Assembly: GCA_030018805.1 (NCBI GenBank)
Contig: JASEHL010000001.1
Coordinates: 1 to 57,521 of the forward strand
Origin: Patescibacteria group bacterium
GTDB lineage: Bacteria; Patescibacteriota; Minisyncoccia; Moranbacterales; UBA11712
DNA length: 57,521 nt
Reading direction: 5' to 3'
The translations under genes and the position numbers were made by a program. Below the pieces are notes generated by a model. It saw only the letters and a list, made by a program, of their open reading frames with translations. It did no database searches and was not told the DNA's origin. Every line of letters starts with the position of its first letter. The first letter of the stretch is position 1. Positions 2,981 to 56,174 of the stretch are shown piece after piece.

Positions 2981-3112
2981 TTCTCACCTCCAAATTTTTG
3001 CAGCCAAGATGATGATCCTGGCGCTTGCAACGATCATGATAGAGTTTCTGCGACACAAATTTCCGGTGTTTTCGGCACCACCACATCCACGCACCTCCCT
3101 ATTTGAAATGAA

Positions 3113-4161: not shown

Positions 4162-4351
4162 TCTTCCGTCAGATTCAAACCAGAAAAGAATATTGAGAGC
4201 CTTCAGAGAAATCGGCTTCACAATCTTACCTCCCTATTCCGGCAAAGGATCGCATCAGTGGGCAACCGATAAAACCAAGGCGAGGAATGGCGATCAGAAA
4301 GATTATGTTTTCTTTTTTCAAAAATGTTTAAACGAACAGGGGGTGAAATAG
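4148..4351 (+). CDS. HicA-like mRNA interferase toxin (short, divergent)
   Basis: ILRAFREIGFTILPPYSGKGSHQW resembles the HicA motif (GF...kGSH). It overlaps the preceding ORF by 14 nt. Confidence 0.45.
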   Translation: MPPNNLPSDSNQKRILRAFREIGFTILPPYSGKGSHQWATDKTKARNGDQKDYVFFFQKCLNEQGVK

Positions 4352-4352
4352 A

Positions 4353-7300
4353 TCACTCTTCAAATCCTAATTTCTTTTTGATCGACTTATACTGCTTGTA
4401 TTCGCTGTCTGTCATATCATTAACGATTGTCTGAGCTTCGCCATCCTTCCCTTGCTTCAAAAGTTCCTGAACATTTTTGACTGTTTCTTCCATAGCCGGA
4501 CGCGCTTCCTCGGTCTTTCTTCGTTGGTCAGACGATTTGGCTTTTTTATATTTTTCGTAGTCGTCATCGGATAAATTGTCCACGATGACCTGGGCTTCTC
4601 CGTCTTTCCCTTCCGCAAGCAGTTTTTGAACTTTTTCGAAAGTCGGCTTGATGTCGATTATATCGCCGGAAGTGGAAATGCCTTTAGTGTCGAGCCCTTC
4701 TTGCTGAAATATGTATTTCATCTTTCCCCGCTCGTCATCATTTGGAAGGTTTTTTATGTATTCTTGCATTCTAGTTTTTCGATCTTCGGGAGATGCTTTT
4801 TTTAGTACTTCAAATAATGCAGCTTTTTCGTCTCTGGTATCCGCTTTTTGGAGTTCTTCTTCTGTTTTTGACGTTACGAATCGGCTAACAAAAGGTGTTT
4901 CTTTAGGTTGCGGAAGCTCACCTTTCGCTATCGCCGAAACAGTTTCCATTGTTTTGGAAATTGTGCGCCCAGCCCCACCAATCAGCTGATCATAAGCGTA
5001 TTTAGCATCCGCAGGAGATATTTCAATCTCTCCACCCGTCTTTTTGGATATAACGCCCGCAGCTCCTCGGAATAATCCGAATGTCTTCGATTTATCAGAC
5101 GGCTCACCTTGCTTATTTTGAAAAAATTGTTCTGATCTTGGCACACCTTCTTTATCCTCTGGACGCATAGGTGATCCAGTCCACTTTTTATTTCTCCATA
5201 TTTCTGATGGGGTATCGAGAATAGTTGGCGTAACTGATGATGGAATGTCAGTCCCTCCGGCAGGATTGTAAGCGTCAAGAGCCGATGCGATGATACCTTT
5301 CGTTGTGCCAAGCGCTCCGTCTTTATTTTTTCCCGCATAAGCATCCGACGCATAATCTGCTGCCACCTTTATCGGTTTGATTCCCCAACTAACCGGAATT
5401 TTGAAATAAGTCGCTCCTTTGTCGGATTTATACATCACGATCAGATTATTGGTTCGATCCCATTTATCAACCTTATCTCGCCAGTTTTCATCAACTGAAT
5501 CGTTCCACTTGTTCACGGCAAATACGGGAACGGCCACGCTCGTTATGGTTGCCGCGGCTACTTTGGGATTCTTCATTGCCTTGAGCATCTTCGTCGAACC
5601 CTGAATTGAAGCATTAGAAAACATATACAGGGAATTGATAATTTGCCCACCGGTTCCTTTTTTATTGAAGTTCACCGTCGCTTCTTTGGCGAGTTTCGCA
5701 GCTTGGTTACGTCCCATTCCTTTTTCGAGAGCAGTCTTATAAACTGATAAGCGTGTCGAATCTTCGAATACGGTGTTCCAACCATCTATTTTTCCCAATA
5801 TATATTGAGCTGTTTTTTTAGCGCTACTCCTGTTTAATTTTTGTATTTTTTCGATATTTAACTCTAGATTTTTTCGGGTTGAAAGTGCCATTCCGCCAGT
5901 TGTTCCGCCATCAAGCTGCATCTGTTGATAGAGCTTGCTGTTCCTGACGACATCGAGCATGCTCGCCGCATCTCTTCCGACAGTCTTTTCCGCACCTGAA
6001 AATCCGACATCTTTTTGCGCGGACATATAGACAGCCATTTCCTGAATGTCCCTGAGCTTGTTTGACAGCACGAATTCTGGGTTAAATCTCGTCGCTAACC
6101 CCGCGTAAAGACGAGTGAATGATCCGACAAATTTAAACACTCCGGGCAATTTGTCGTTCCCGACTCCCTGAAAAACTTTAGCTAGTTTCTCGTCTTCGAT
6201 TCTTAAATATATAGGTTTTCCTTTTTCTCGAATAGCAAGGGTCAAAGGATCGCGCACCTCTGCCAGGATAACTTTATCGTCAAAAGTTTTTCCTATCGCT
6301 TTCGGTTTAACTTCTTTGAAGATTCCCAGATCAGCGTTGTCCCTTGCGAATTTCAAAGTGGCAAGGTTGACGCGGTTCTTTTCAGCCCGTACAATAGCCT
6401 GTTCAAGATTCGCTGTGACATTCGTCATTATGTCCGCTACTTCCCTTTCACTTCCCTTGGCGCGTTTGATTCCCGTCCCTTTTGTCGAAAAGCCTTTGCT
6501 GGTTAGCGCTTGCCCCACATCTTCAGTTTCTTCAAAGAGGCGATTAAGCGGAACGTGATTTTTGTATGCCTTCTTTAGAGTTTCATAGAGTTCATCGCTG
6601 ATGACTTCGCTGTCGCGGAGAATATTTAAAGTGTTTGAGTGGACCTCCTTTACCTTGTCGGCAATTCTCTTGATTTCTCCGGCGTGCTTTTTCACTCCGA
6701 TTTCCATTAGAGTATTAGCCGCTTCGTCATCGGTCATTCCGGCCGCCTTTGTTCCCAACTTGGCATTTCTTTCCGGTGCGTGCGTGGCGATTAAGTATTT
6801 GTTCACATCCGCGTAAAGTTCTTTATCTTTTACTCCGACAGATTTGGCAGTTTTGAGAACATCCATGTCTACTTCCTTGACCGCTTCTTGAGCGAGCTCC
6901 AGTCTTCTCCCGACCCGTCCGTGAAAAAGTGTTTCCGCATCATAAGGATTCAAATCTTTAGAAACTTTGACTCCTGGCTCTCGTTGCAGATTTTTGACTC
7001 TAATCCAGTTGTCCTGCACGGTTTCGCGCGTTTTTGTCCACCATTCTCCGAAAACTGCTTTTTTGGCTTGTTTAAATATGCCAACCTTCGATGGATTCAC
7101 TTCGCCGGGAATCAAGTTTTTGTCCGCTTCAAATATTGACTTATAATCATTACTTTGCTTTAATTGGCTCAAAGTAGAATCTTTTTTGTATGAAGGACTT
7201 TTTAATATATCTTGGTCTGTCAGTCGTGGCGTTTCTTGTGGTAGAGTTTTTTCTAATGCAGAAGCCGTCTTACCAGTGCCAGCCGACGGATGAATGGTGC

Positions 7301-12948: not shown

Positions 12949-13921
12949 ATTTGGATTCCCGCCTATAGCGGGATCACACACCGCCGGACGAACGGTTTTC
13001 CCGTATCCTGGCGGTTTCCAACGCTGGATCAAACTGTTTTTTGAAATTATGTTTTTTGCCGAACTTTCGCATTTTGTTGCGAAGCCGTTGGATTCTTTCA
13101 AAGCCCTTGTCGGTCAGATGTTCCTTTTCCCGCATCGCGAGAACAATCTTTTTGAAAAGTTTGTAAACATCCGCCTTCTTGGCTTCGAGAGGATGGCGGT
13201 CAAGGAATGGGAAAAGGATTTCCGTCAAGTCTCGCGTGCTGGTCACTTTGAGTTTGGCATGCGGATGCCATCCATATCGTTCATACGAACAATCATAGAT
13301 TCTTCCGCAGCCGATCGTCGCGACTATGCGCTCGAGAATTTTTCGGTCATCATCCCGAAGTTCAATTTCAAACTCCGGCTTTATTTCCACTCCTCTTTTG
13401 AGAGTCTTGTGCCGGTTAATACTAACCGAGAAAGACCCTTCGCCATCAATGAATCCGGAAACATAATATGGATTCAGTTTTTTGCATTGGATTTGCTCCT
13501 TCCCAAACGGATCTTTCAAACGCGGATTGCGCTCGAAAGGCTTTCGCTTGGTACTATGAGCTCGGCTGACTTCTTGCATGGCTTGAATCAAAAATTACTC
13601 TTTGATTTTACTTTATAATTCTCGTGGTTAGTATACCACAGAATTAAAAGACCATACAAGATCTCCCTTGGTCACTCAATAAACATTTTGACGCCGTCTC
13701 GATAAACCGATACATATATATCTTATTTGAAGATGGCTTCCTCATGTACTCCCAGAGTCGCCAAATATATATGTATTTGTTGTTTATTCAAGCTGGCATC
13801 TGCTACTTTCACCCTTCAGTCCGATCCTCACGGAGTCGAACCTGTGATTTCGCTTCATGGATTCTTCAATATCCTTGGTCGGATTCACACCGACTAGCTT
13901 ATTGGGCTGCAAGGCACCCGA
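12949..13921 (-). other. about 0.97-kb intron-like insertion in the 16S rRNA 1390-1400 region
   Basis: It separates ...GGTCTTGTAC (13930..13922) from ACCGCCCGTCACACC (12948..). It contains a homing endonuclease ORF. The exact splice boundaries are not resolved. Confidence 0.7.
12974..13591 (-). CDS. LAGLIDADG homing endonuclease (single-motif type)
   Basis: 205 aa. YVSGFIDGEGSFSVSI is a LAGLIDADG motif. The ORF lies inside the rRNA insertion. Confidence 0.85.
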   Translation of the reverse strand: MIQAMQEVSRAHSTKRKPFERNPRLKDPFGKEQIQCKKLNPYYVSGFIDGEGSFSVSINRHKTLKRGVEIKPEFEIELRDDDRKILERIVATIGCGRIYDCSYERYGWHPHAKLKVTSTRDLTEILFPFLDRHPLEAKKADVYKLFKKIVLAMREKEHLTDKGFERIQRLRNKMRKFGKKHNFKKQFDPALETARIRENRSSGGV

Positions 13922-13983
13922 GTACAAGACCCGAGAACGTATTCACCGGGACATGGCTGATTCCCGATTACTAGCGATTCCGG

Positions 13984-14034
<51 letters not shown>

Positions 14035-14152
14035 GGATTGGCTCCGCCTCGCGGCTTGGCTACCCATTGTACCGGCCATTGTAGCATGCGTGTCGCCCAG
14101 GGCGTCAGAGGGCCATGCTGATTTGACGTCATCCCCGCCTTCCTCCCAGCCC

Positions 14153-14329
14153 GATGCGCACTCGCTGCGCGAGTGCTAAATTAAAAACTTAAAATTAAAA
14201 GTGAAAAATTATGGAGTCTCGCTGCGCTCGACAATTTACTTTATACATAAATAGTCATGCGCGAAGCGCATACCAGAATTTTTACTTTTTCATTTTTACT
14301 TTTTAACTTAGCGCGCGTAGCGCGCATTG
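14153..14329 (-). other. ORF-less intervening sequence in a 16S hairpin loop (E. coli about 1130-1140)
   Basis: The native stem cccagccc (14145-14152) pairs with gggctggg (about 14330-14337) and is extended by an insert. The insert arms aaattaaaaacttaaaattaaaagtgaaaaatt and aatttttactttttcatttttactttttaactta are complementary and have a 7-nt period. Confidence 0.6.
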
Positions 14330-14408
14330 GGCTGGGCAGTCTCGAGTGACACTTGTAACACTCGACAGGGGTTGCGCTCGTTTCCCGACTTAACGGAACA
14401 CCTCACGG

Positions 14409-14439
<31 letters not shown>

Positions 14440-15005
14440 CCAGCACCCTCGAAGGCTATCATGTTTCCATGATATGCAGCTGGATTTCAAGCCCTGGTGA
14501 GGTTCCTCGCTTATTGACGAATTGAACCGCGTGCTCCACCGCTTGTGCGGGTCCCCGTCTATTCCTTTGAGTTTTAAGCTTGCGCTCGTACTTCCCAGGC
14601 GGCCTGCTTAACGCGTTAGCTACGGTCCTGAAAGGGTCGATACTTCCAAGACCTAGCAGGCAACGTTTAGGGCGTGGACTACCGGGGTATCTAATCCCGT
14701 TCGCTACCCACGCTTTCGTGTCTCAGCGTCAGACAAAGCCCAGTTCACTGCCTTCGCCTTTGGCGTTCCATATGATATCAACGCATTTCACTGCTACACC
14801 ATATGTTCCATGAACCTCTACTTGTCTCGAGTGATGACGTTTCAGATGCGGCTCCAACGTTGAGCGCTGGAATTTGACATCTGACTATCATCGCCGCCTA
14901 CACACGCTTTACGCCCAATAAATCCGGATAACGCTTGAGGTCTCTGTATTACCGCTGCTGCTGGCACAGAGTTAGCAACCTCTTATTCCTACCGTACCGT
15001 CAGAA

Positions 15006-15437
15006 GTGAGATGTGAGAAGTTAGATGTGAGATTTTATTTCCATCTTTCCCTTAACCTGTATAATTGTTTGCCGATAATATCGTATTCTTCTATTAATTT
15101 ATCGGCAATATTTTTTTCTCCAAATTCAGCATTAACTGAATCTTCTATATGACTCATAACTTCATTACATGAACCTAGAGATCGAGTTAGATACAGCTTA
15201 AATTCCGCTATAGATCTTCCGTATCCTTCTGCAATATTCGAATGAATCGAATTTGCAGCTCTGCACATTTGATCTCTTAGATGTTTTGCTTCAAAGGGAA
15301 ATGTTTTTGTATAATTTACAATCTGTGGATACAATTTTTTTGATCTTTGGTAAACATCAAGATCTTTAAAACTTTTAATCATATCCAAATTATACAACAA
15401 TTATATCTCACTTCCCACCTCTCAACTCTCACCTCTT
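15006..15437 (-). other. intervening sequence in the 16S V3 helix carrying a four-helix-bundle protein gene
   Basis: The arms gtgagat/gtgagaa/gttagat/gtgagat (15006-15033) and atctcac/ttcccac/ctctcaa/ctctcac (15405-15435) are inverted 7-nt tandem repeats. The flanks are normal 16S sequence (..ACCAGAAGAAG and CTTCTGACGGTAC..). Confidence 0.65.
15035..15400 (-). CDS. four-helix-bundle protein (23S rRNA-intervening-sequence protein / Avd-like family)
   Basis: 121 aa. FKDLDVYQRS...FPFEAKHLRDQMCRAANSIHSNIAEGYGRS...EFKLYLTRSLGSCNEV fits the family pattern. It is in the same orientation as the rRNA. Confidence 0.8.
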   Translation of the reverse strand: MLYNLDMIKSFKDLDVYQRSKKLYPQIVNYTKTFPFEAKHLRDQMCRAANSIHSNIAEGYGRSIAEFKLYLTRSLGSCNEVMSHIEDSVNAEFGEKNIADKLIEEYDIIGKQLYRLRERWK

Positions 15438-15519
15438 CTTCTGGTAGAAAAGAAGTTTACAACCCGAAGGCCTTCATCCTTCACGCGGCGTCGCTCGGTC
15501 AGGCTTTCGCCCATTGCCG

Positions 15520-15550
<31 letters not shown>

Positions 15551-15610
15551 TTGGGCAGTGTCTCAGTCCCAATGTTGGGGATCATGCTCTCACATCCCCT
15601 ACCCGTCATA

Positions 15611-15648
<38 letters not shown>

Positions 15649-15809
15649 ACACAGGCCGCTCCTCAAGCGATAAATCTTTACTCCGAAGAGAACTATCTCG
15701 CATTATTCCCCCTTTCGAGGGATTATTCGAGACTCAAGGGTACGTTCCTATGCATTACTAACCCGTTTGCCGTGCCGCCAAAGGCGGCACGCGACTTGCA
15801 TGCCTTATC

Positions 15810-15849
<40 letters not shown>

Positions 15850-15989
15850 AATAAGAATTATTTCGATAAAATAAATTACCAAAATAATTTTGAGAACCCG
15901 GAATTTTTTGATAGAAATTCCGGCGAACTCTATAAAAGTAACTGATTTTGAATAGATCGTTTGGCACTTCCCCGACGTTACGTCGGGGC

Positions 15990-16696: not shown

Positions 16697-18121
16697 TCAA
16701 AGCCGCTCCACCGCCTCCCGAAATTTATCCCCCCGATCAAATTCATTGAGGAATAGGCCAAAGCTCGCCGCACCGGGAGAAAGAAGAACCGTGTCTCCTG
16801 GACCAGCGATATTTTTCGCCCGGATGACCGCTTTTTCCATCAAATCAAACTCGCTGTCAATAATTCCACTCCCAGAGTTGAACTCTGGGAGTTTGCCCAA
16901 TTCGGTTTTTATTTTCTCCGTTGCTTCGCCTTTGAGCAAAATAGTTTTTTTCACTTTTTCGGCAATGGCTCTTGCGAATTCTTTGAATTCCAGGTTTTTG
17001 TCCGCTCCACCGGCGATAAGAATCACGGGCTTGGAAAAAGAATTGATTCCCGCAATGGCCGCGTCCGGCACCGTCGCCGTCGTATCATTATAATATTTCA
17101 CTCCTCCGAGTTCTCGAACTAGTTCCAACCGGTGCTCAACGCCCTTGAAATTTTTCACCGCCTCGCAAATTTTTTCAGGCGCCACTTCAAAAGCAACTGC
17201 TGCGCCCACTGCCGCGAGAACGTTATACAAATTATGACCGCCGAGAAGTTTGACGTCGTTCAGGTCGCAGATGACTTTTTCTTCGTCTTTATCATTGAAT
17301 ATTATTTTACCTTTCGCGATGTAGACGTCCGACGTCTTAATCGTAGACGTCGGACGTCTACAGGATTCCGTCGAAAAAAATATTACTTGCGACTTTGTCT
17401 CTTTGGCCATTTCGCGCACAACTTCGTTGTCCCAGTTCAAAATGACATAATCATCCGCCTTTTGATTCGAGAAAATATATTTTTTGTCAGCAATGTATTT
17501 TTCCATCGAGCCGTAATAATTGAGATGGTCCCGATGGATATTGGTTATCACCGCAATATGCGGACTCGAGTTGGCACGGCCCAGCGCGGAAAGCCTCCAG
17601 CTCGAAAGCTCAAAAACGATGACTCCACTTTTTTCTCCTTCGATATTTTCCAGGAGATCAAGGACTGGTTTTTGTCCGATTCCGGCCGTGAAGACATTTT
17701 TGCCGGCCGTTTTCAAAATTTCCGCAATCAAGATAGCAGTCGTCGTTTTTCCCTTCGTTCCCGTCACTCCAATAACCGGCAGTCTGCACAATTTAAAAAA
17801 GATACTCGAATCCATTTCGACCGGAATTTTTTTATTGAGAGCCGCCTGAATATGCTTTGAGCTCCATGGAACAGCCGGGCCCTTCACAACCATATCAACA
17901 TTTTCAAAGTCTTCCATTCGATGTTGGCCAAGCACGAAAGTAACATTTTTGAGGTCTTTTAATTTCTTGAGTGAGGGTTTGAGCTCTTTTTCCGTTTTCA
18001 TGTCCGTCGCGATAACTTTCGCTCCTACGCCAGAAAAAAAACGAACGGTTGCCACTCCGCCGCCGTGCAATCCTATTCCCGCTACTGTGATTTTCTTGTT
18101 TTTGAAATCGGATTTCTTCAT
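16697..18121 (-). CDS. murD: UDP-N-acetylmuramoylalanine--D-glutamate ligase
   Basis: 474 aa. GIGLHGGGVATVRF..., GVTGTKGKTTT and the overall Mur ligase layout are present. It contains an in-frame palindromic insert. Confidence 0.9.
   Translation of the reverse strand: MKKSDFKNKKITVAGIGLHGGGVATVRFFSGVGAKVIATDMKTEKELKPSLKKLKDLKNVTFVLGQHRMEDFENVDMVVKGPAVPWSSKHIQAALNKKIPVEMDSSIFFKLCRLPVIGVTGTKGKTTTAILIAEILKTAGKNVFTAGIGQKPVLDLLENIEGEKSGVIVFELSSWRLSALGRANSSPHIAVITNIHRDHLNYYGSMEKYIADKKYIFSNQKADDYVILNWDNEVVREMAKETKSQVIFFSTESCRRPTSTIKTSDVYIAKGKIIFNDKDEEKVICDLNDVKLLGGHNLYNVLAAVGAAVAFEVAPEKICEAVKNFKGVEHRLELVRELGGVKYYNDTTATVPDAAIAGINSFSKPVILIAGGADKNLEFKEFARAIAEKVKKTILLKGEATEKIKTELGKLPEFNSGSGIIDSEFDLMEKAVIRAKNIAGPGDTVLLSPGAASFGLFLNEFDRGDKFREAVERL
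17321..17361. repeat. family-B palindromic element inside murD
   Basis: gtagacgtccgacgtct-taatc-gtagacgtcggacgtctac has perfect 17-bp inverted arms. It encodes CRRPTSTIKTSDVY. Confidence 0.9.
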
Positions 18122-23694: not shown

Positions 23695-23702
23695 TCAATC
23701 CG

Positions 23703-23772
23703 GTCTACAAATTACGAATTTAGTACCAATATACGAATTCGTATATCCGTATGCGATTCGTAATTCGTAGAC
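23703..23772. repeat. intergenic nested hairpin with attcgta heptad arms, copy 2
   Basis: gtctacaaattacgaat...atacgaattcgtat...attcgtaattcgtagac. It fills the gatC-gatA spacer and is related to 18138-18196. Confidence 0.8.
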
Positions 23773-23776
23773 AGGG

Positions 23777-24064
23777 TTAGAAAACAGCTTTCACCTTATC
23801 GAACCGATCTTTCTTTTCCGGGAAATTTTTTATTATTCCTGTTTTCGTTTCCTCGCTATATTCAATAATTTTATCTTCCCGCGTTTCATTTTTCGCGTCG
23901 GTAATATGCGCGATCGGCTCAATCCCGTCCGTATCCGCTTCGTTCAGCTTTTCCACAAAACCCAAAATATCCGAGAGTTCTTTCAAATACTTTTCGGCTT
24001 CTTCGCCGGTTATTTCAATGCGGGCAAGATTGGCAATTTTTTGGACTTGTTGTTTGCTTAACAT
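23777..24064 (-). CDS. gatC: Asp/Glu-tRNA amidotransferase subunit C
   Basis: 95 aa. VQKIANLARIEITGEEAEKY is typical of GatC. Confidence 0.9.
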   Translation of the reverse strand: MLSKQQVQKIANLARIEITGEEAEKYLKELSDILGFVEKLNEADTDGIEPIAHITDAKNETREDKIIEYSEETKTGIIKNFPEKKDRFDKVKAVF

Positions 24065-24067
24065 AAG

Positions 24068-26271
<2,204 letters not shown>

Positions 26272-26272
26272 A

Positions 26273-26938
26273 CTATTCTAACCACAGCTTTTCATCTTGC
26301 TTTCTTTCGCGAAAATCCGCGATATTTTCGGCTGCATATTCAAAATATTCTTGAGAATTTTTAAATTGGCTTAAAATAACTTCTTTTTTGCACAATTGAT
26401 TGCTTTCTTTTCCTAAATATTCGGGAAAGCCGCACCATCTATAATTTCTGGCAGGATGTATTCCGTGTATCTCGCTGTTGCAATTCACATACACCGACAT
26501 GCGAAGAAAATTATTTGGTCCGATGCGCATTGATTTGAATCTTCCTTGAAAAAGCACGCCGCTTCTTTGATTCTTTTCATTGAAATATTTTGTGTAACTG
26601 TTTCCTAACCTTTGCATAAATATCTTTATCCCATTATTATCTGCAGTTTGTTTCAAAACGAAATGATAATGATTAGAATTGAGGCAATATGCAATAATTT
26701 CAACTAAGGGATTCCTTTGTTTAACATTCGCCGCCAGAAAATTTTGCACCGATTCTCTGGGATGATTCTCTTTGTAATCCCGCCACCTAATCATTAAACC
26801 GTCTTTTTTGTCATTTAGTAAATCCATAGCCAATAAAAATCTCTCAAAATATCTGTCGCTTAAAAACACATCCCGTTTATCAACGCCGCGATTGTATATG
26901 TGATAGTATTCATTTTCCACAAGAGGATTCTTACGCAT
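26273..26938 (-). CDS. REP-associated tyrosine transposase (IS200/IS605 TnpA-like, HUH-Y1)
   Basis: 221 aa with EYYHIYNRGVDKRDVF, the HUH motif NSNHYHFVLKQ and NSYTKYFN...GVLFQGRFKS. Confidence 0.8.
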   Translation of the reverse strand: MRKNPLVENEYYHIYNRGVDKRDVFLSDRYFERFLLAMDLLNDKKDGLMIRWRDYKENHPRESVQNFLAANVKQRNPLVEIIAYCLNSNHYHFVLKQTADNNGIKIFMQRLGNSYTKYFNEKNQRSGVLFQGRFKSMRIGPNNFLRMSVYVNCNSEIHGIHPARNYRWCGFPEYLGKESNQLCKKEVILSQFKNSQEYFEYAAENIADFRERKQDEKLWLE

Positions 26939-26947
26939 CTTCTTTTG

Positions 26948-27045
26948 ACCCTAACATTCAATGTTAGGGTAGCATATTTTTGAAGAAAACAAAAGAGCGG
27001 GTTTTCTAATGAATCCGCCCTTACCCTAACATTGAATGTTAGGGT
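26948..27045. repeat. pair of class-C REP palindromes upstream of the RAYT gene
   Basis: accctaacattcaatgttagggt (26948-26970) and accctaacattgaatgttagggt (27023-27045). Confidence 0.85.
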
Positions 27046-27048
27046 GCG

Positions 27049-27126
27049 TTAGAAAATTTCACGTTTATCTACACCGCGGTTATATATGTGATAATACTCA
27101 TTGTTTACTAATTGTGATTTTCTCAT
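27049..27126 (-). pseudogene. N-terminal remnant of a second RAYT gene
   Basis: Own translation is MRKSQLVNNEYYHIYNRGVDKREIF followed by a stop. Compare MRKNPLVENEYYHIYNRGVDKRDVF in the intact copy. Confidence 0.55.
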
Positions 27127-27134
27127 GCAATCCT

Positions 27135-27225
27135 GCTAAGGTTGAACCTTAGCGAAAGTATAACATATATTTTTACATAGCAAAAGAGCGGGTTTTTCCC
27201 GCTCTTGCTAAGGTTCAACCTTAGC
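27135..27225. repeat. pair of class-D REP palindromes next to the RAYT remnant
   Basis: gctaaggttgaaccttagc (27135-27153) and gctaaggttcaaccttagc (27207-27225). Confidence 0.85.
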
Positions 27226-27236
27226 GAAGCTCTACG

Positions 27237-27268
27237 CAAAGAACGAGCAGTACTGCTCGTTCTTTTTG
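27237..27268. terminator. intrinsic terminator-like hairpin
   Basis: gaacgagcag-ta-ctgctcgttc followed by ttttt. Confidence 0.55.
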
Positions 27269-48262: not shown

Positions 48263-48820
48263 TTATGGCTTGATTGAAAACCGCCACAAATATTCCCGGC
48301 AGTATTGGGCGTAGTCAATGCCGATTCTCTGGGATTTTTTTATTTCCGAAGGTCGAACCTTCGGAATTCCTTTTTCGAGCCACAATTTTTCCCCTTTTGT
48401 TATGTCCCATTTGTTGAGTTTTCGGTCGATATGCAAAAATTTACAGAGTTTTCCGGGGCCATCCAAGTAGACGTCCGACGTCTTCGACTTTGTAGACGTC
48501 GGACGTCTACAAAGTTTCGCTCCCCTAATCAAAACCGCCGCCGGGAAATCTTTTTTCTCGGTGACGATGTTGAGGCAATGGTACATTCCATAAATCATAT
48601 AAACATAAGCGCAGCCCGGCTCTCCGTACATCACTTCTGTCCTTGGAGTTCTCCCCCGCGAAGCGTGACAAGCCAGATCGTCCTCGCCGTGATAGGCTTC
48701 GGTTTCGATGGTCATCGCCCGCCAAATTTTTCCGCGATATTCGCGCATCAAAAAACAGCCGAGAAGATCCCGGGCAACTTTCAAAGTATTTCGCCGATAG
48801 AACTTTCTATTTATGATCAT
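48263..48820 (-). CDS. 3-methyladenine DNA glycosylase (AAG/Mpg family) with two in-frame palindromic inserts
   Basis: 185 aa with TLKVARDLLGCFL, IETEAYHGEDDLACHA and AYVYMIYGMYHCLNIV. Confidence 0.85.
   Translation of the reverse strand: MIINRKFYRRNTLKVARDLLGCFLMREYRGKIWRAMTIETEAYHGEDDLACHASRGRTPRTEVMYGEPGCAYVYMIYGMYHCLNIVTEKKDFPAAVLIRGAKLCRRPTSTKSKTSDVYLDGPGKLCKFLHIDRKLNKWDITKGEKLWLEKGIPKVRPSEIKKSQRIGIDYAQYCREYLWRFSIKP
48346..48364. repeat. class-E palindrome inside the glycosylase gene
   Basis: ccgaaggtcgaaccttcgg encodes PKVRPS. It is related to the class-D REP sequence. Confidence 0.8.
48467..48510. repeat. family-B palindromic element inside the glycosylase gene
   Basis: gtagacgtccgacgtct-tcgacttt-gtagacgtcggacgtctac encodes CRRPTSTKSKTSDVY. 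Confidence 0.9.
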
Positions 48821-52566: not shown

Positions 52567-52640
52567 GAATTATGAATTATGAATTATGAATTATGCAAGC
52601 AAAAAAATATTCTTAATTCATAATTCCTAATTCATACTTC
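52567..52640. repeat. intergenic heptad-armed hairpin, (gaattat)4 type
   Basis: gaattatgaattatgaattatgaattatg, a loop, then cttaattcataattcctaattcatacttc. Confidence 0.85.
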
Positions 52641-56105: not shown

Positions 56106-56174
56106 GAATCAGGAGTTATGAATTATGAGTCCCAAAAAAAGACCACTTCGGCCCTGATTCATAATTCATAATTC
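56106..56174. repeat. intergenic heptad-armed hairpin
   Basis: gaatcaggagttatgaattatgag, a loop, then cctgattcataattcataattc. It fills the tsaD-to-next-gene spacer. Confidence 0.8.

Follow-up and report, generated by a model that had tools for sequence, protein, structure and literature searches.

Doublets of a 21-nucleotide GTAG-type repeat, probably belonging to RAYT-like transposases, lie in frame within murD and a DNA glycosylase gene of a candidate phyla radiation bacterium

Two unrelated genes in a 57.5-kb stretch of DNA from a Patescibacteria group bacterium (contig JASEHL010000001.1, positions 1 to 57,521; the window, by which we mean this whole stretch) carry the same palindromic element in frame, namely murD and a gene for a DNA glycosylase of the AAG/MPG family. 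Our results indicate that each site is probably a doublet of a 21-nt repetitive extragenic palindrome (REP) of the GTAG type, i.e., the nonautonomous hairpin of REP-associated tyrosine transposase (RAYT)-like enzymes (IS200-like, Y1/HUH) that are widespread in the candidate phyla radiation (CPR), lodged inside coding sequence. Named protein matches place the window in a Moranbacteria-like lineage.

The element in murD (17321-17361) reads GTAGACGTCCGACGTCT-TAATC-GTAGACGTCGGACGTCTAC, and that in the glycosylase gene (48467-48510) reads GTAGACGTCCGACGTCT-TCGACTTT-GTAGACGTCGGACGTCTAC. A 17-mer search allowing up to 3 mismatches gave 8 matches in the window (four units on both strands) against an expectation of 0.04; 0 of 100 shuffles reached this count, and no further copy was present anywhere else in the window. 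The initial annotation had claimed that one repeat occurs at both places and is read in the same frame, without a stop, as CRRPTST..KTSDVY in two unrelated genes, and both the sequence comparison in the intact open reading frames (ORFs) and the 17-mer search bear this out. The murD frame runs ...STES-CRRPTSTIKTSDVY-IAKG... and the glycosylase frame ...GAKL-CRRPTSTKSKTSDVY-LDGPGK..., the shared peptide being CRRPTST-(IK or KSK)-TSDVY. The term perfect palindrome was slightly loose, as it holds for the arms but not for the whole element. Folded as single-stranded DNA, the murD doublet has an energy of -22 kcal/mol (z = -7.4 and -9.0) and the glycosylase-gene doublet one of -21 kcal/mol (z of about -7). 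A scan of the whole window against Rfam at the gathering threshold gave no family at either element, and no direct repeat indicative of a target-site duplication flanks either of them.

A point absent from the initial annotation is that each arm is a palindrome in its own right (AGACGTC-[C/G]-GACGTCT), so that two copies of a smaller unit make up the element. This unit, TGTAGACGTC[C/G]GACGTCTACA, is 21 nt or 7 codons long, begins with GTAG, and by itself folds into a 9-bp stem (-7.7 kcal/mol, z = -4.2); at each window site, two units in inverted orientation form one long hairpin with arms of 17-18 nt. Each of the four window units has the GTAG foot on one strand, as have nearly all of the 78 related copies. 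Four AatII-type GACGTC sites are contained in the motif.

The association with transposases was seen at seven loci (L018, L033, L076, L078, L086, L087, and L097) at which the unit lies beside a RAYT-like gene, at both gene ends in five of them (L018, L076, L086, L087, and L097), whereas the script detected it on a single side in L033 and L078. An in-frame copy inside the gene is present in six of the seven. The layout is clearest in L076, where the RAYT-like ORF (1993-2691, 232 aa) is followed by a unit 3 nt past its stop codon and preceded by another 15 nt ahead of its start, with a third in frame inside. Both flanks and the interior are likewise occupied in L018, L097, and L087 (one mismatch in the internal copy of the last), while in L086 the upstream unit is shortened and the downstream one is a compensatory variant, with an internal copy between them; L078 is limited to a 3' flanking and an internal copy, and L033 to an internal copy and one upstream of the probable start. 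Other palindromes co-vary with genes of their own: the RAYT-like gene of L082 is flanked on both sides by GACGGAAGC-nnn-GCTTCCGTC and also contains it, and that of L054, truncated at the contig end, contains CCTAAGACTTAGTCTTAGG and has another copy downstream. A GTAG-footed hairpin that brackets a Y1 transposase gene is the arrangement of a REP with its RAYT, or 'REPtron', and the window elements would hence be doublets of a GTAG-type REP resembling REPINs (REP doublets forming hairpins).

All eight proteins examined matched the Pfam family Y1_Tnp ('transposase IS200 like') at 25.6-37.4 bits against a cut-off of 23. The best and only NCBIfam match was NF047646, 'REP-associated tyrosine transposase' (an equivalog model), at 19.9-29 bits against a cut-off of 80; these proteins are RAYT-like and not canonical RAYTs. 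When a profile of ten of them was compared with the PDB, ISDra2 TnpA came first (E = 0.03), with E. coli TnpA-REP (4ER8) at E = 0.09; a PDB search with a single sequence gave nothing at E <= 1. Residues H86, H88, and Y146 are invariant in the family, which is large (2,919 clusters at 50% identity match the window copy at E <= 1e-10), and subfamilies bearing the identical 21-nt unit are only ~42% identical to one another.

RAYT-like genes carry their own REP in frame about 10-15 codons ahead of the HUH motif, and they do so in three REP families (L076, 2493-2511; L018, 833-851; L078, 2091-2111; L086, 550-572; L097, 4638; L033, 2042-2060, in a different reading frame; L082, 4474-4496; L054, 158-180). 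This suggests that the in-frame copy has a function in the transposase gene, such as self-regulation. The window has a RAYT-like gene of the same protein family which lacks an internal copy and is paired with a different REP, ACCCTAACATT[C/G]AATGTTAGGGT, at 26240-26272, 26948-26970, and 27023-27045; one copy abuts the stop codon and another lies 9 nt ahead of the start. None of the 150 closest representatives of its protein contains the peptides of the GTAGACGTC unit, so this subfamily uses another REP, and the gene is not the cognate of the GTAGACGTC unit. The region 26240-27265 is a complete REPtron in itself. It adjoins a 26-codon N-terminal remnant of another RAYT-like gene (27046-27129, minus strand) with its own REP, GCTAAGGTT[G/C]AACCTTAGC, at 27135-53 and 27207-25, and it looks as if one REPtron overwrote another here.

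Scanning one genome per prokaryotic species with GTAGACGTCSGACGTCT returned at least 112 loci. High-GC loci show single, one-sided half-matches only, which we read as chance; low-GC loci (30-48% GC) show the full 21-mer, often several times. The latter are labelled as Nomura-, Moran-, Sacchari-, Pacei-, and Parcubacteria, and the unit is identical in them base for base; one further low-GC metagenome-assembled genome (MAG), labelled Bdellovibrionales, carries the unit among genes that look CPR-like. In viral contigs, only two half-matches to the motif were found, both in high-GC contigs and judged to be chance. Of 78 copies, 40 have C and 38 have G as the centre base, and no intact copy has A or T there. 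When aligned, the flanks of these 78 copies show a weak palindromic extension (TT...AA, T-rich/A-rich), beyond which no target-site motif, fixed target tetranucleotide, or duplication was detected. The window holds 4 units in its 57.5 kb, and related MAGs hold at least 5-12 each among the matches listed. Core spacings of doublets in other host genes, counted by eye, are about 4, 7, 8, and 10 nt. As regards the labels, the MAG CAZHTL01 (L018, L025, L054, L088, L105, and L109), entered as 'uncultured Bdellovibrionales', has a GC content of 36-41%, carries the unit at least 12 times, and contains CPR-like genes, including a radical-SAM, Elp3-like gene orthologous to the Moranbacteria one; it is probably misclassified.

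Two of the three frames of the unit are open on either strand, one giving CRR[P/R]TST and the other VDV[G/R]RLQ, whereas the third has a TAG. These open frames are the ones used by at least 20 units that lie within real genes, with hosts confirmed by Pfam that include Dus, GAPDH, a radical-SAM protein (Elp3-like by eye), ArgRS, a GT4 glycosyltransferase, OMP decarboxylase (PyrF), ATP synthase gamma, LeuRS, RNase J, and adenylate kinase; overall, the unit was present in at least 12 unrelated genes at unrelated positions, and also between genes. If the frame were irrelevant, about one-third of the in-gene copies should fall in the TAG frame, and at most 1 of 74 copies, a doubtful case, has this frame with long open stretches on both sides. 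The second unit of both window doublets does fall in the TAG frame, but the TAG is AAG in both genes and in every orthologue read. The decayed versions in orthologues, some 15-20 per gene, are also in frame and free of stops. Avoidance of the stop frame, including the change of TAG to AAG, argues that the segments are translated, and on these reading frames their removal at the RNA or protein level would be very unlikely. At one of the host genes, ATP synthase gamma in L085 (~4300-5765), the frame appears shifted after about residue 145, and further on this sequence encodes a peptide, PLPTSPLAKGEG, which looks derived from yet another palindromic repeat.

Comparison with orthologues addresses whether the segments are insertions, as the initial annotation had proposed. 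Among the 120 best MurD homologues, the majority have a short turn such as FFSTAE-IDSENC-VFVKSGKI where the window protein has FFSTES-CRRPTSTIKTSD-VYIAKGKI. A recognizable segment, ranging from near-intact to decayed, is present in about 15-20 of the closest relatives (e.g., LRRRTSKIDKTSDVY in P0010, SKRPTSTIEMSDVY in P0020, and YRRLASKNGISNIC in P0003), and two relatives have a quite different insert at the same position. In AAG the commonest loop is AVKIEG-VDYK-KTNGPGKL; CRRPTST..KTSDVY is common to six sequences, decayed versions occur in about ten, and at least eight unrelated inserts occupy the same place in other orthologues. At the DNA level, the basic 39-nt AAG loop forms no hairpin (minimum free energy 0 to -5 kcal/mol), and the longer loops for which DNA was read (about five kinds) have inverted-repeat arms of 10-15 nt or a long hairpin. 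Such reuse of one loop is seen elsewhere: unrelated inserts enter the same protein loops in different CPR lineages (AAG loop, loci L115-L194), and GAPDH orthologues P0253-P0316 have several of them in one loop after residue ~125-128, one of which, TEARLPS, matches by manual back-translation the REP flanking the RAYT-like gene of L082.

Against the common short orthologues, MurD is longer by a net 6 aa and AAG by 8 aa; where OMP decarboxylase and ATP synthase gamma hold a single unit, the gain is about 5 to 7 aa. The segments, as aligned, are additions to loops, ancestral to neither family yet of greater age than the window genome: the loop is short in the majority of MurD and AAG orthologues, subsets have the segment intact or decayed, and both insertions are shared in one of these states with relatives at 75-83% protein identity. 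An assembly artefact is refuted because the element occurs at the same sites and codons in six independent assemblies from different samples. What the data do not describe is a clean or recent insertion of 41-44 nt, as both element lengths are 2 mod 3 and the proteins have gained 6 and 8 aa. Neighbour-joining trees of AAG and MurD were built with the loop masked, and insert states were labelled by length, a labelling that mixed a native 17-aa loop type with true REP inserts. Both trees are star-like and unresolved, with insert-bearing and insert-free sequences interspersed, and hence do not separate a single gain followed by many losses from repeated gains.

In the AlphaFold2 models both segments fall in predicted loops, in line with the proposed surface location. 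Residues 251-262 of MurD (mean pLDDT of the model, 89) are a coil between strands 245-250 and 263-269, with lower confidence in the insert coil and the DVY of the insert joining the second strand; in the weaker AAG model (pLDDT 69), residues 104-117 are a coil with a pLDDT below 50. The best PDB relative of the window MurD is that of S. agalactiae (E = 4e-63). Each host gene also has a second in-frame palindrome, similarly built but unrelated to the doublet. The one in murD, ACTCCCAGAGTT-G-AACTCTGGGAGT at 16868-16892, encodes KLPEFNSGS, with a gain of 4 aa over orthologues; the one in the glycosylase gene, TTCCGAAGGTCGAACCTTCGGAA at 48344-48366, encodes IPKVRPSE and leaves the length unchanged. 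Coordinates of the main features are collected in Table 1.

Table 1. Positions of the host genes, the REP doublets and their units, and the RAYT-like gene in the window
Feature	Position	Strand	Remarks
REP doublet (REPIN-like hairpin) inside murD	17320..17362		18-nt perfect arms, 7-nt loop; DNA fold -22 kcal/mol
REP unit 1 in murD	17342..17362	-	minus strand reads TGTAGACGTCCGACGTCTACg; 20/21 to family consensus; translated CRRPTST
REP unit 2 in murD	17321..17339	-	minus strand reads TAAGACGTCGGACGTCTAC; TAG -> AAG; translated KTSDVY
REP doublet inside 3-methyladenine DNA glycosylase gene	48467..48510		17-nt perfect arms, 10-nt loop
REP unit 1 in glycosylase gene	48491..48511	-	minus strand reads TGTAGACGTCCGACGTCTACA; 21/21 to consensus; translated CRRPTST
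REP unit 2 in glycosylase gene	48467..48485	-	minus strand reads GAAGACGTCGGACGTCTAC; TAG replaced by AAG; translated KTSDVY
murD	16697..18121	-	474 aa; three Mur ligase domains; intact; all family-invariant residues present
AAG/MPG-family DNA glycosylase gene	48263..48820	-	185 aa; Pur_DNA_glyco, E = 4e-58; intact
RAYT-like Y1/HUH transposase gene	26273..26938	-	same protein family as the RAYT-like genes of related genomes; paired with a different REP, ACCCTAACATT[C/G]AATGTTAGGGT

The arms are conserved to an unexpected degree in some lineages. The AAG genes of the window, L195, and L196 agree at all 39 arm bases and differ from one another in the two spacer codons; they have a protein identity of 80-83%, an overall DNA identity of ~75-77% (derived from per-position identities), and only 43-55% identity at third positions of conserved four-fold codons. 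MurD orthologues keep the 15-nt cores, differ in spacer length, and have now C, now G as the centre base at one and the same orthologous position. Elsewhere there is plain, uncompensated decay (L135, L198, the second unit of L115, and P0003/P0125); changes in decayed copies are mostly uncompensated, the one compensatory variant being that next to the RAYT-like gene of L086. Judging from these alignments, the arms would be either under constraint at the nucleotide level or renewed by conversion or re-insertion. A further case is the GAPDH gene of L016, in which the unit (3073-3093) sits exactly in place of 21 native bases without a change in length; CRRPTST is found where 119 orthologues have SKKPTTA-like peptides, the flanks are collinear, and the closest orthologue is 89% identical.

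By analogy with E. coli TnpA-REP and IS608, the transposase would bind the GTAG-footed hairpin on single-stranded DNA, cut nearby, and join the strand elsewhere. A crude tiling of long ORFs covers ~78% of the window, and in so gene-dense a genome many landings would be expected inside genes; as the unit is 7 codons long and nearly strand symmetric, with one closed frame of three, about two-thirds of these would stay open. Landings in permissive surface loops would survive selection, and the doublet would then be translated as a loop extension of 14-15 aa, which is probably neutral for the enzyme. The mRNA hairpin of the AAG loop region (-33.5 kcal/mol) could slow ribosomes.

Several observations weigh against a REP-doublet origin by way of RAYT-like transposases. 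The proteins are far below the curated RAYT cut-off, no cognate RAYT-like gene of the 21-nt unit lies within the 57.5-kb window, the copy number of the unit is low in the window and among the matches listed, and the census of loci was obtained by searching with the motif itself. The net length changes of 6 and 8 aa are unequal to the element lengths of 41 and 44 nt, and both insertions are old. The spacers differ between the window doublets (5 and 8 nt), and orthologous doublets differ in spacer sequence and length, so the doublet is not behaving like a REPIN that is copied as one piece. The 21-for-21-nt replacement in the L016 GAPDH gene is explained by no known step of a Y1 transposase. Three points stand outside the explanation altogether, namely the undecaying arms, the eight or more inserts in one glycosylase loop, and this GAPDH swap.

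A more active version of events would account for these last points. In CPR bacteria, where intergenic space is almost lacking, REP/RAYT-like systems might use permissive protein loops as a habitat, with a transposase-dependent process that re-installs, flips, or overwrites a 21-nt coding patch, the in-frame REP in the transposase gene serving self-regulation. It would explain perfect arms amid synonymous saturation, a centre that is only C or G and flips, successive REP families in the same loops, and the GAPDH swap; we regard it as rather unlikely. At the opposite extreme, the doublets may be inert relics of the same REP origin, i.e., fossils without any present interaction with a transposase whose arms have merely not yet decayed. 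The age and orthology of the insertions, the plain decay seen in several lineages (L135, L198, the second unit of L115, and P0003/P0125), and the lack of a cognate RAYT in the window are all consistent with this. However, retention of the complete set of 39 arm bases in the three AAG genes (window, L195, and L196) has a chance probability of ~1e-5 per pair at the overall identities, and both window doublets equal the pan-CPR consensus (20/21 for unit 1 in murD), and we therefore consider the relic explanation unlikely. It is quite unlikely that the hairpin is kept for the host, as DNA or mRNA, in translational pausing, mRNA stability, or as a protein-binding site, with its REP origin incidental. 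Such a role would fit arms that are kept at the nucleotide level while the spacer varies freely, as well as the glycosylase loop with its eight or more unrelated inserts, about five of which were read and have inverted-repeat arms or a long hairpin, and something similar in the MurD and GAPDH loops. Yet most AAG orthologues have the hairpin-free 39-nt loop and intact genes, the same unit is found in at least 12 unrelated genes at unrelated positions and in intergenic DNA, and decay is not compensatory.

The remaining alternatives are weaker. A DNA uptake signal or a restriction-modification-related motif, comparable to the in-gene uptake sequences (DUS/USS) of Neisseria and Haemophilus, would also be a short exact motif common to many CPR lineages, found singly or as inverted pairs, both in intergenic DNA and in genes, where it keeps to preferred frames. 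The motif, however, lies around and within Y1 transposase genes, other subfamilies of which are arranged alike with palindromes of their own; it is far less numerous than uptake signals, and a GTAG head on a hairpin is the signature of a REP. An uptake function is thus highly improbable. We give still less credence to an intron-like or intein-like segment that is removed before the mature protein, for which only the strong hairpin speaks: group I and group II introns and inteins are all far longer than 14-15 codons, Rfam gave no match at either site, the frame is preserved, TAG has become AAG in all orthologues read, decayed versions are free of stops, and the stop frame is essentially absent among in-gene copies. 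Chance similarity or an assembly artefact has a negligible probability, given the outcome of the 100 shuffles and the occurrence at the same codons in independent assemblies. A miniature inverted-repeat transposable element was also considered and rejected, as there is no flanking direct repeat and the associated gene is of the Y1 and not the DDE type. Hence, the reading of both sites as doublets of a GTAG-type REP of RAYT-like transposases remains the one that we favour.

The window has other notable features. Its 16S rRNA gene (13891-15855) is 1965 nt long against a model of 1533 nt and hence has insertions, which are often reported for CPR bacteria. A match to domains D1-D4 of a group II intron lies just downstream on the same strand (13496-13609). 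Heptamer repeats of the GAATTAT type in imperfect inverted repeats, together with an imperfect palindrome of 82 nt, account for 52567-52640, 56113-56174, and 23697-23778.

Nearly all work on REP and RAYT systems has dealt with extragenic repeats of Proteobacteria. Our results place an abundant and very divergent RAYT-like family in the CPR/Patescibacteria, whose hairpins, to judge from the genes read here, appear to be routinely inside essential genes and translated; a selfish repeat of this kind can survive within proteins where a genome has almost no intergenic space. Many of the 'lineage-specific insertions' of 7-15 aa in CPR proteins may accordingly be derived from repeats and not be adaptive, and such inserts could mislead alignments, phylogenies, and structure predictions; the peptides CRR[P/R]TST, VDV[G/R]RLQ, and KTSDVY can be used to flag them. 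The hairpins in the MurD and AAG loops provide a natural system for asking whether REPs are maintained by selection, conversion, or re-insertion, how far enzymes tolerate random peptides, and whether a Y1 transposase can overwrite DNA. The value of these findings lies less in the two sites than in CPR-wide, transposase-linked hairpins in loops and in hot-spot loops shared by several repeat families.

The initial annotation compared the element to the Rickettsia palindromic elements. RPE-1, reportedly described by Ogata et al. in 2000, is ~100-150 bp long, encodes 30-50 aa, and is confined to Rickettsia; we know of no transposase identified for it. The analogy holds for behaviour, in that a palindromic repeat lies in frame in unrelated functional genes and gives unrelated proteins the same peptide. 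It does not extend to kinship: the CPR elements, doublets of 41-44 nt made of 21-nt units, are unrelated to RPE-1 in sequence, and a RAYT-like cognate can be identified in related genomes. With the IS200/IS605 elements (IS608 and ISDra2) the system shares the transposase superfamily, subterminal hairpins with a guide tetranucleotide, and a single-strand 'peel and paste' logic without target duplication; unlike in those elements, what is dispersed in CPR is the hairpin only and not the gene, and the 78 flanks showed no fixed target tetranucleotide.

The closest kind is the GTAG REP/REPIN with its RAYT in E. coli and Pseudomonas (Ton-Hoang 2012; Messing 2012, PMC3479197; Bertels and Rainey 2011, PMC3116915; Bertels 2017, PMC5581495), for which the REPtron concept and the biochemistry of TnpA-REP (PMC3479197) and the general background of REPINs and RAYTs (PMC5581495) have been set out. 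Both have short hairpins that start with a 5' GTAG and, paired as inverted doublets, make a long one; in both, a Y1/HUH gene is tightly bracketed by units, and different transposase lineages have different REPs. In contrast, the CPR unit is fully symmetric (GTAG...CTAC) and exactly 21 nt long, and is identical across CPR classes and across RAYT-like subfamilies of ~42% identity; many of its copies are intragenic, an in-frame copy of the REP is usual in the transposase gene itself, the proteins score well below curated RAYTs, and doublet spacers are not conserved, whereas a REPIN would have a spacer common to its copies. An intragenic location (both window copies and at least 20 related units) departs from the definition of REPs as extragenic, but intragenic members are already accepted (PMC3733652). 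Di Nocera, De Gregorio, and Rocco (2013; PMC3733652) described in-frame intragenic GTAG and CGTC REPs in Opitutus terrae, Thauera, and Rickettsia conorii (RPE-4 and RPE-6), in genes that include DNA repair genes and tRNA synthetases. The suggestion that the element is undescribed would thus hold for this CPR family but not for the kind: no description of the 15-mer core or of REPs in CPR bacteria was found in the literature searched, and the CPR family of 21-nt REPs appears to be undescribed, while the kind is known. As in Opitutus terrae, Thauera, and R. conorii, in-frame singlets and dimers encode short extra peptides that are thought to sit in loops or linkers (PMC3733652), although in another lineage and from another sequence family. 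What the CPR repeats add to those cases is the conservation of orthologous arms at the nucleotide level, the reuse of the same loops by several families, and the repair of the stop frame.

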